NCBI RefSeq assembly: GCF_003334255.1
Contig: NZ_QOWU01000021.1
Origin: Escherichia coli
GTDB taxonomy: Bacteria; Pseudomonadota; Gammaproteobacteria; Enterobacterales; Enterobacteriaceae
DNA length: 64,000 bases
Reading direction: 5' to 3' (one strand)
Position 1 is the first letter of the stretch, and every line of letters begins with the position of its first letter. The position numbers and the translations under genes were made by a program. The notes beneath the pieces are model-generated. The model was not told the origin of the DNA and made no database searches. It saw nothing but the letters and a program-made list of their open reading frames with translations. Shown one piece after another: positions 20,648 to 20,914 of this stretch.

Positions 20648-20914
20648 ATGGACATTAACAACAAAGCCCGCATTCATTGGGCATGCCGCCGTGGTATGCG
20701 CGAACTCGATATTTCAATCATGCCGTTTTTCGAACATGAGTACGACAGCTTAAGCGATGACGAAAAACGCATCTTTATTCGTCTGCTGGAATGTGACGAT
20801 CCGGACCTGTTTAACTGGCTGATGAATCACGGTAAACCGGCCGATGCAGAACTGGAAATGATGGTCCGACTCATCCAGACACGGAACCGGGAACGTGGTC
20901 CTGTGGCAATCTGA
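20648..20914 (+). CDS. sdhE: FAD assembly factor SdhE (YgfY / CptB)
   Basis: 88-aa [63 protein letters not shown]... Confidence 0.93.

Follow-up and report, generated by a model that had tools for sequence, protein, structure and literature searches.

A conserved 20-nucleotide overlap of sdhE and ygfX in Escherichia coli and the probable GTG start codon of ygfX

Two models of translational coupling, which have been reviewed and are not exclusive, propose either that the upstream ribosome unfolds an RNA structure or that a post-termination ribosome is re-used, and gene overlaps are known to be enriched among genes for heteromeric complexes. In this work we analysed the overlap between sdhE (also called ygfY or cptB) and ygfX (cptA) in a 64,000-nucleotide (nt) stretch of Escherichia coli DNA (contig NZ_QOWU01000021.1), the window, in whose coordinates positions are given. 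Among the closest described systems, the coat–lysis overlaps of the RNA phages fr and MS2 share with sdhE–ygfX a downstream start located 5' of the upstream stop and weak intrinsic initiation signals, and either post-termination ribosomes or unfolding have been proposed to give access to their start. These phage overlaps are longer (34-38 nt), and their coupling has been dissected experimentally and depends on RNA structure, whereas no conserved structure was found at sdhE–ygfX. Coupled pairs with short overlaps of the ATGA or TGATG type, such as trpB–trpA, often coding for subunits of a single complex, are like sdhE–ygfX co-directional and co-transcribed and their products interact, as SdhE and YgfX do in Serratia, but the sdhE–ygfX overlap is 20 nt and not 1, 4 or 8. 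Finally, in the type IV toxin–antitoxin (TA) pair CbeA/CbtA (YeeU/YeeV) the toxin is likewise claimed to target FtsZ and MreB and the antitoxin is likewise classed as type IV. However, CbtA/CbeA is carried by cryptic prophages with a patchy distribution while sdhE–ygfX is a core syntenic locus and, unlike in the CbeA/CbtA type IV class, SdhE and YgfX interact (in Serratia) and SdhE has an independent conserved role in enzyme assembly. Our comparison of related loci makes it very probable that the GTG codon located inside sdhE is the genuine start of ygfX.

The pair present in the window is the E. coli K-12 sdhE (ygfY, cptB; b2897) and ygfX (cptA; b2896) locus itself. The region from 20400 to 21500 is E. 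coli chromosome, with a 100% match to many complete genomes, and the RefSeq/PGAP annotation contains the same two coding sequences with the identical 20-nt overlap (L001, 1749-2015 and 1996-2403). The elements of the junction are the following:
20648-20914, + strand: sdhE (ygfY/cptB) coding sequence, from ATG to the TGA at 20912-20914, 88 amino acids (list of open reading frames and RefSeq).
20895-21302, + strand: ygfX (cptA) coding sequence, from GTG to the TAA at 21300-21302, 135 amino acids, encoding an inner-membrane protein.
20895-20914, + strand: dual-coding overlap of 20 nt, GTGGTCCTGTGGCAATCTGA, read directly from the DNA.
20895-20897, + strand: GTG start codon of ygfX, made of bases 2-3 of the sdhE Arg83 codon CGT and base 1 of the Gly84 codon GGT.
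20912-20914, + strand: TGA stop codon of sdhE, 17 nt 3' of the first base of the ygfX start.
Relative to sdhE, ygfX is read in the +1 frame, and nucleotides 20895-20914 encode both R83(part)-G-P-V-A-I-stop of SdhE and M1-V-L-W-Q-S-D7(part) of YgfX. The ygfX frame is open from 20862, the preceding in-frame stop being the TGA at 20859-61, and the GTG at 20895 is the first canonical start in this frame. The original prediction, a 20-nt overlap with a GTG start for ygfX, is thus borne out by the open reading frames, the sequence and RefSeq, and so is its description of a soluble SdhE and a YgfX with two transmembrane segments, encoded in the same orientation with the GTG lying within the 3' end of sdhE. 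The label 'CptB/CptA-like' that it used designates the right genes but is too weak, as these are the E. coli cptB and cptA genes themselves. The overlap and the GTG start are already annotated and already known; we found no paper on the cross-species conservation of the overlap, on start-codon migration or on synonymous constraint at sdhE–ygfX.

The conservation of this arrangement was analysed in 80 species-representative loci of Enterobacteriaceae, 79 of them including sdhE, and in 12 distant YgfX loci (L082-L093), which gives a total of 91 loci with the upstream region. In each of the 79 Enterobacteriaceae loci that contain sdhE, ygfX starts with GTG, sdhE ends with TGA and the overlap is exactly 20 nt long, with a nearly invariant sequence, and the two codons that make up the GTG are fixed among the 77 distinct sdhE sequences of this family (CGT for Arg83, 77/77; GGT for Gly84, 77/77). 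The start is kept inside sdhE in 11 of the 12 distant loci, whose YgfX identity goes down to 27%, with overlaps of 14, 20 or 26 nt, and the overlapping arrangement is therefore conserved in 90 of the 91 related loci. The overlap is 20 nt long with a GTG in L083, L084, L085 (Edwardsiella tarda), L086, L087 (Providencia alcalifaciens), L088, L089 (Duffyella gerundensis) and L091, 26 nt long with a GTG in L090 and L092 (Pantoea ananatis), and 14 nt long with an ATG in L093, the most diverged locus examined for context (28% YgfX identity). GTG is the ygfX start in 11 of the 12 distant loci, ATG being found only in L093. In L090 and Pantoea the residues of the SdhE tail are unchanged and the CGT-G that makes the GTG now lies in the codon for Arg81 and no longer in that for Arg83; this migration of the start under an unchanged SdhE tail points to selection for a start located inside sdhE. 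ygfX lies immediately 3' of sdhE and in the same orientation in every one of the 91 related loci whose upstream region is covered, and the order ygfZ–sdhE–ygfX–fldB–xerD is fixed across Enterobacterales, distant loci included. Within E. coli, the 1.1-kb sdhE–ygfX region was found in all of the 5426 complete genomes (5426/5426), with a median of one copy per genome; a second copy is present in 1/5426, on a record labelled as a plasmid. The sdhE–ygfX arrangement is more than chance, because it is kept in 90/91 loci and because the synonymous constraint at the junction, described below, is significant.

Synonymous constraint was measured on the 77 distinct Enterobacteriaceae sdhE sequences, with a permutation test on normalised synonymous-codon entropy. 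The third-position entropy is 1.05 bit for sdhE codons 2-74 versus 0.11 bit for codons 83-88 (n=77), and the normalised synonymous-codon entropy is 0.073 for codons 78-88 versus 0.754 for the rest of the gene (permutation p <= 1e-5). Codons 78-82, which lie outside the overlap, are also frozen (0.096 versus 0.754, permutation p about 1e-5), and Arg79 is encoded by the rare codon CGG in 77/77 sequences. Coding in the ygfX frame cannot explain the constraint on codons 78-82, since there is no ygfX-frame start upstream of the GTG in 50/77 species, 37 of which have a stop just 7 codons upstream. The simplest reading of this constraint is that a ygfX translation-initiation region would be embedded in sdhE. 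This segment, and an RNA hairpin that could form across the start, are:
20879-20893, + strand: probable ygfX translation-initiation region, sdhE codons 78-82, ACA CGG AAC CGG GAA.
20880-20905, + strand: possible RNA hairpin, CACGG.ACCG[GGAACG]UGGU.CUGUG, which pairs the UG of the GUG start.
Two weak motifs resembling a Shine–Dalgarno (SD) sequence precede the GTG, GGA at 20883-85 and GGGAA at 20889-93, but the predicted anti-SD duplex for the ygfX start is only -4.0 to -4.3 kcal/mol, a value equalled at 18% of random window positions. The hairpin was not retained as an established feature: it folds at -10.8 kcal/mol, yet 31/200 shuffled sequences fold equally well, and it reaches -8.2 kcal/mol in Enterobacter and Klebsiella and is absent in Cedecea and, outside Enterobacteriaceae, in Providencia, Edwardsiella and Pantoea. 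More generally, no conserved RNA structure was found at the junction when a 120-nt segment was folded (z = -0.32), the consensus structure of the alignment at the junction is -0.65 kcal/mol with 3 pairs only, and an Rfam search of 20300-21500 gave no match at E <= 1. The motif ACAcGGA followed by GGGAA (20879-20905) resembles the ACA-N-GGA core of CsrA/RsmA sites, and the loop of the predicted hairpin would present the GGA; in Serratia, RsmA represses sdhEygfX expression.

The properties of the two proteins bear on what the junction encodes. SdhE matches the NCBIfam equivalog NF008130 over its full length, residues 1-88 (198.4 bits for a cut-off of 120), contains the RGxxE motif (R15-G16-M17-R18-E19), described as important, and is identical to the PDB 1x6i and 6c12 chains. 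It is the flavin adenine dinucleotide (FAD) assembly factor for SdhA/FrdA, of the SdhE/Sdh5/SDHAF2 family (PF03937), and its requirement for the covalent flavinylation of these subunits is described in work on E. coli and Serratia. An E. coli ygfY deletion mutant is viable, has no succinate dehydrogenase (SDH) activity and fails to grow on succinate. The SdhE core extends to about residue 80, as the Vibrio cholerae homologue aligns to residue 80 only and the crystallised 6b58 construct ends at residue 84; the segment encoded by the overlap is thus a tail located beyond the conserved core. YgfX belongs to PF07254 (Cpta_toxin, formerly DUF1434; E=7.4e-50), with residues 2-131 covering model positions 1-132 of 133, and its hydropathy profile shows two hydrophobic segments, residues 14-36 and 36-54. 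The native protein has been detected in E. coli membranes. An AlphaFold2 model of YgfX, of high confidence (predicted local distance difference test score, pLDDT, of 94.7), delimits three elements:
20898-20918, + strand: N-terminal β-strand of YgfX, residues 2-8 (VLWQSDL), mostly encoded by the overlap (AlphaFold2 and DSSP, pLDDT about 94).
20928-21080, + strand: transmembrane helical hairpin of YgfX, residues 12-31 and 36-62 (hydropathy windows, AlphaFold2 helices).
21087-21296, + strand: cytoplasmic domain of YgfX, residues 65-134, six β-strands and a C-terminal helix (118-134) with a fold resembling a pleckstrin homology (PH) domain.
We infer from the model that the cytoplasmic domain of YgfX is PH-like, with the transmembrane hairpin placed between its first strand and the rest. 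As the overlap encodes this first strand, the protein-level constraint on the YgfX side would be explained. An alignment of 37 sequences down to 26% identity gives the N-terminal consensus MVxWQxxLRxS, in which S11 is nearly invariant, and V2, L3 and W4 are invariant in a closer set of sequences. A Foldseek search with YgfX gave a weak, non-significant match to EROS (8kei_D), a membrane-anchored PH-domain chaperone of a flavocytochrome.

The best explanation of these observations, which we consider likely, is a housekeeping operon with a dual-coding junction that produces SdhE and its membrane partner YgfX. The operon would be vertically inherited in Enterobacterales, and YgfX translation would begin at the GTG at 20895, within the last seven sdhE codons. 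The 15 nt located 5' of the GTG and the 20-nt overlap would together form the dual-coding junction, encoding a dispensable SdhE C-terminal tail, a weak ygfX ribosome-binding region and the first YgfX β-strand. The distance between the P site of a ribosome initiating at the GTG at 20895 and that of a ribosome terminating at the UGA (ATC codon, 20909-11) is 14 nt, much less than one ribosome footprint; sdhE translation would thus have to affect ygfX initiation, and two such ribosomes should be unable to share the same mRNA simultaneously. The production of YgfX is probably low and tied to sdhE translation, because its start is weak (GTG and a poor SD sequence) and because the two ribosomes would be mutually exclusive. 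Post-termination ribosomes could re-initiate 14 nt upstream, ribosomes translating sdhE could prevent the site from folding, or both effects could contribute to this tie. ygfX has weak autonomous initiation signals (GTG, weak anti-SD duplex), as expected of a coupled downstream gene. Together with the persistence of the arrangement across at least four families and the interaction of the products, the weak GTG start and the weak SD sequence make translational coupling from sdhE to ygfX plausible, with a chance about equal to that of a frozen overlap in which ygfX is initiated weakly and independently. A more specific proposal, which we regard as quite improbable, is that the conserved junction (ACA-CGG-AAY-CGG-GAA-C-GUG and the overlap) is a regulatory node controlling the YgfX:SdhE ratio, YgfX being a stoichiometric membrane tether of SdhE and not a toxin. 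Under one version of this proposal ygfX initiation would depend strictly on sdhE termination by backward re-initiation over 14 nt; under another, a GGA site of the CsrA/RsmA type in the loop of the 20880-20905 hairpin would occlude the GUG. In such a node YgfX, a split PH-like domain carried on a transmembrane hairpin, would tether SdhE during flavinylation of SdhA/FrdA.

Alternative readings concern either the start of ygfX and its product or the meaning of the overlap. A ygfX start located downstream, which would abolish the overlap, is very improbable, even though TTG 20916 is in frame 2 nt past the sdhE stop and some database orthologues of 97-125 amino acids begin at internal Met codons. 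The TTG at 20916-20918 (+ strand) was rejected because the corresponding codon undergoes ordinary Leu-codon drift elsewhere (TTA/CTT/CTG/CTC/CTA/ATA) and is not a start codon in most species; it is not preceded by an SD sequence (-2.2 kcal/mol), and the residues encoded upstream of it, V2, L3 and W4, are conserved family-wide. The same holds for YgfX residues 2-7 as a whole, which are conserved and structured, the Pfam model itself starting at residue 2. The ATG at 20988 (Met32, within the first membrane helix) was rejected as well, since its use would remove the N-terminal strand and the first transmembrane helix. In the other direction, an upstream extension of ygfX was discarded, because in E. 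coli no start codon follows the in-frame stop at 20859 before the GTG is reached. Deep conservation, migration of the start, synonymous constraint and a conserved, structured YgfX N-terminus all argue that the GTG at 20895 is the one used. Since the first strand is encoded by the overlap, the shorter YgfX annotations of databases (97-125 amino acids, internal Met) are wrong. Within single species (Providencia, Pantoea, Edwardsiella, Duffyella, Citrobacter and Salmonella; also P0019 and P0046), YgfX orthologues are annotated with lengths of 97 to 154 amino acids, because gene callers take an internal Met or an upstream TTG or ATG and miss the GTG inside sdhE. The probability that a programmed +1 ribosomal frameshift within the overlap produces an SdhE–YgfX fusion is close to nil. 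Proteins of 217 amino acids carrying both Pfam domains do exist in the protein database, and the ygfX frame is open from 20862; but these fusions are singletons from metagenome or read assemblies, each with a different junction position, a scatter that fits random indel errors and because of which programmed frameshifting was rejected. Furthermore, no conserved slippery or stop-stimulated shift motif was found, and in most species a ygfX-frame stop lies 4-7 codons upstream of the GTG. The database SdhE–YgfX fusions (P0002, P0003, P0005, P0008-P0010, P0013 and P0022; 166-217 amino acids) look like the products of 1-nt indel errors.

With respect to the overlap itself, several observations weigh against a coupled housekeeping operon initiated at the GTG. 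No direct mapping of the start came from published data sets: the TRAINSPOTTER N-terminomics supplement contains the SdhE N-terminus with Ribo-RET/INRI-seq support and does not list YgfX, and the INRI-seq supplements have no YgfX entry. The SD-like GGA is lost in Providencia, Edwardsiella and L086, and within the overlap any constraint on one protein is bound to preserve the other reading frame as well, which makes it impossible to attribute the constraint to one gene. Efficient termination–reinitiation was found to be confined to spacings of about -8 to +6 nt (overlaps of -4, -1 and -8), a window that does not include the -20 nt spacing of sdhE–ygfX, and long overlaps were described as typically uncoupled products of stop-codon loss (Huber et al., 2023). 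Nor is the overlap obligatory: in L082 the GTG lies 1 nt after a TAA and is preceded by an AAGGAAG SD sequence, and in Shewanella sdhE and ygfX are reported to be separated by a 37-bp gap. L082 comes from an AT-rich lineage (YgfX identity 59%) and has a shortened SdhE tail (…QQRKQ*) together with a much better SD sequence, which is consistent with compensation for lost coupling. Alternatively, the overlap could be a frozen accident, the ancestral sdhE stop having been lost and sdhE read into ygfX, with the -20 nt phase persisting and free 30S subunits initiating ygfX de novo at a weak site of its own, independently of sdhE translation, a possibility that we hold to be tentative. It fits with the stop-loss route proposed by Huber et al. 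(2023), who also observed that 'phase 1' overlaps (-8, -11, ..., -20, -26) are retained several-fold more often than others, since shortening to -4 or -1 nt is impossible for them; the overlaps observed here, -14, -20 and -26 nt, are all phase 1 and affect an SdhE tail located beyond the core, non-overlapping arrangements exist in L082 and Shewanella, and the constrained 15 nt 5' of the GTG look like an autonomous initiation region. However, the SD match in this region is weak (18% of random positions do as well), the GTG has been kept and not upgraded to ATG in 90/91 loci, and with start and stop in one ribosome footprint sdhE translation would have to either promote or impair ygfX initiation; that the overlap persists in at least four families and that the start has migrated with preservation of the overlap also suggest more than neutrality. 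The original prediction proposed instead that the two genes form an antitoxin/toxin pair. A genuine type IV TA module (CptB/CptA), in which YgfX inhibits FtsZ/MreB polymerisation, SdhE counteracts it and the overlap ensures that no toxin is made without prior translation of the antitoxin, appears unlikely. The order of the genes (antitoxin first), their small size and the overlap resemble those of TA operons, and the adjacency of two small genes holds, co-transcription being known from Serratia and Shewanella; the Pfam family is named Cpta_toxin. Two reports also speak for a TA function and against a housekeeping one: toxicity and its neutralisation in one overexpression study in E. coli (Masuda et al., 2012, as described in papers citing it), and a CptBA-like pair of Acinetobacter baumannii presented as a TA system. 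In Serratia (Fineran group), in contrast, the sdhE and ygfX products were found to interact without any TA phenotype, and a direct interaction contradicts the definition of type IV systems, in which toxin and antitoxin do not interact. In Shewanella, where the genes (ygfY/ygfX) are co-transcribed, a ΔygfY mutant can be obtained, the additional loss of ygfX (ΔygfYX) does not make the cells healthier, and YgfX overexpression is not rescued by YgfY. In E. coli the ygfY deletion is viable, with loss of SDH activity as its phenotype, and the locus, a single-copy core locus present in 5426/5426 genomes with fixed synteny, is neither mobile nor patchy, whereas TA systems typically, though not by strict definition, have a patchy, multi-copy or mobile distribution. 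Finally, SdhE has an established and structurally characterised role in enzyme assembly, and the membrane-anchored PH-like fold predicted for YgfX suggests a scaffold or an adaptor. The arrangement expected of a TA pair is therefore present, but its distribution differs from that of mobile TA systems, the phenotype was not reproduced in Serratia or Shewanella and ΔygfY cells are viable; the TA label is contested and this reading doubtful. The analysis shows the coordinates, the conserved start and overlap, the synonymous constraint and a conserved, structured YgfX N-terminus; from these we infer translational coupling and a low stoichiometry of YgfX, in a module made of SdhE and its membrane partner rather than in a true TA system.

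The flanking sequences contribute little to this picture. In the window, ygfZ (- strand) lies upstream of sdhE, and fldB (- strand) then xerD (+ strand) lie downstream of ygfX, as annotated by RefSeq/PGAP. A consensus promoter scan found no promoter, with no sigma-70 match in the 242-nt divergent intergenic region between ygfZ and sdhE (20406-20647), and this same region has no Rfam match. A terminator consensus scan gave two terminator-like matches inside ygfX, which is the chance level. A perfect 7-bp inverted repeat, TGACGGC (21306-12) and GCCGTCA (21329-35), separated by a 16-nt loop, occupies 21306-21335 in the 39-nt gap between the convergent ygfX and fldB stop codons; it is not followed by a T-run and was not called by the terminator scan.

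The significance of these observations is modest: they provide firm comparative support for an awkward and frequently mis-called start codon. As the first residues of YgfX form a structural β-strand, truncated annotations or constructs would be defective. Manipulation of the 3' end of sdhE, standard in-frame deletions included, will disturb ygfX initiation, and this could confound the conflicting TA experiments. Keio in-frame deletions reportedly retain the last six codons of the target gene, presumably codons 83-88 in the case of sdhE, so that a Keio ΔsdhE mutant would keep the GTG and have its native upstream region replaced; the phenotypes of ΔsdhE mutants may therefore include altered ygfX expression. 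In conclusion, this locus is most likely a housekeeping operon that encodes SdhE, the flavinylation factor, together with a PH-like, membrane-anchored partner of low abundance, YgfX, and our analysis lends weight to the opinion that Pfam and TA databases are mistaken in labelling cptBA a TA system.

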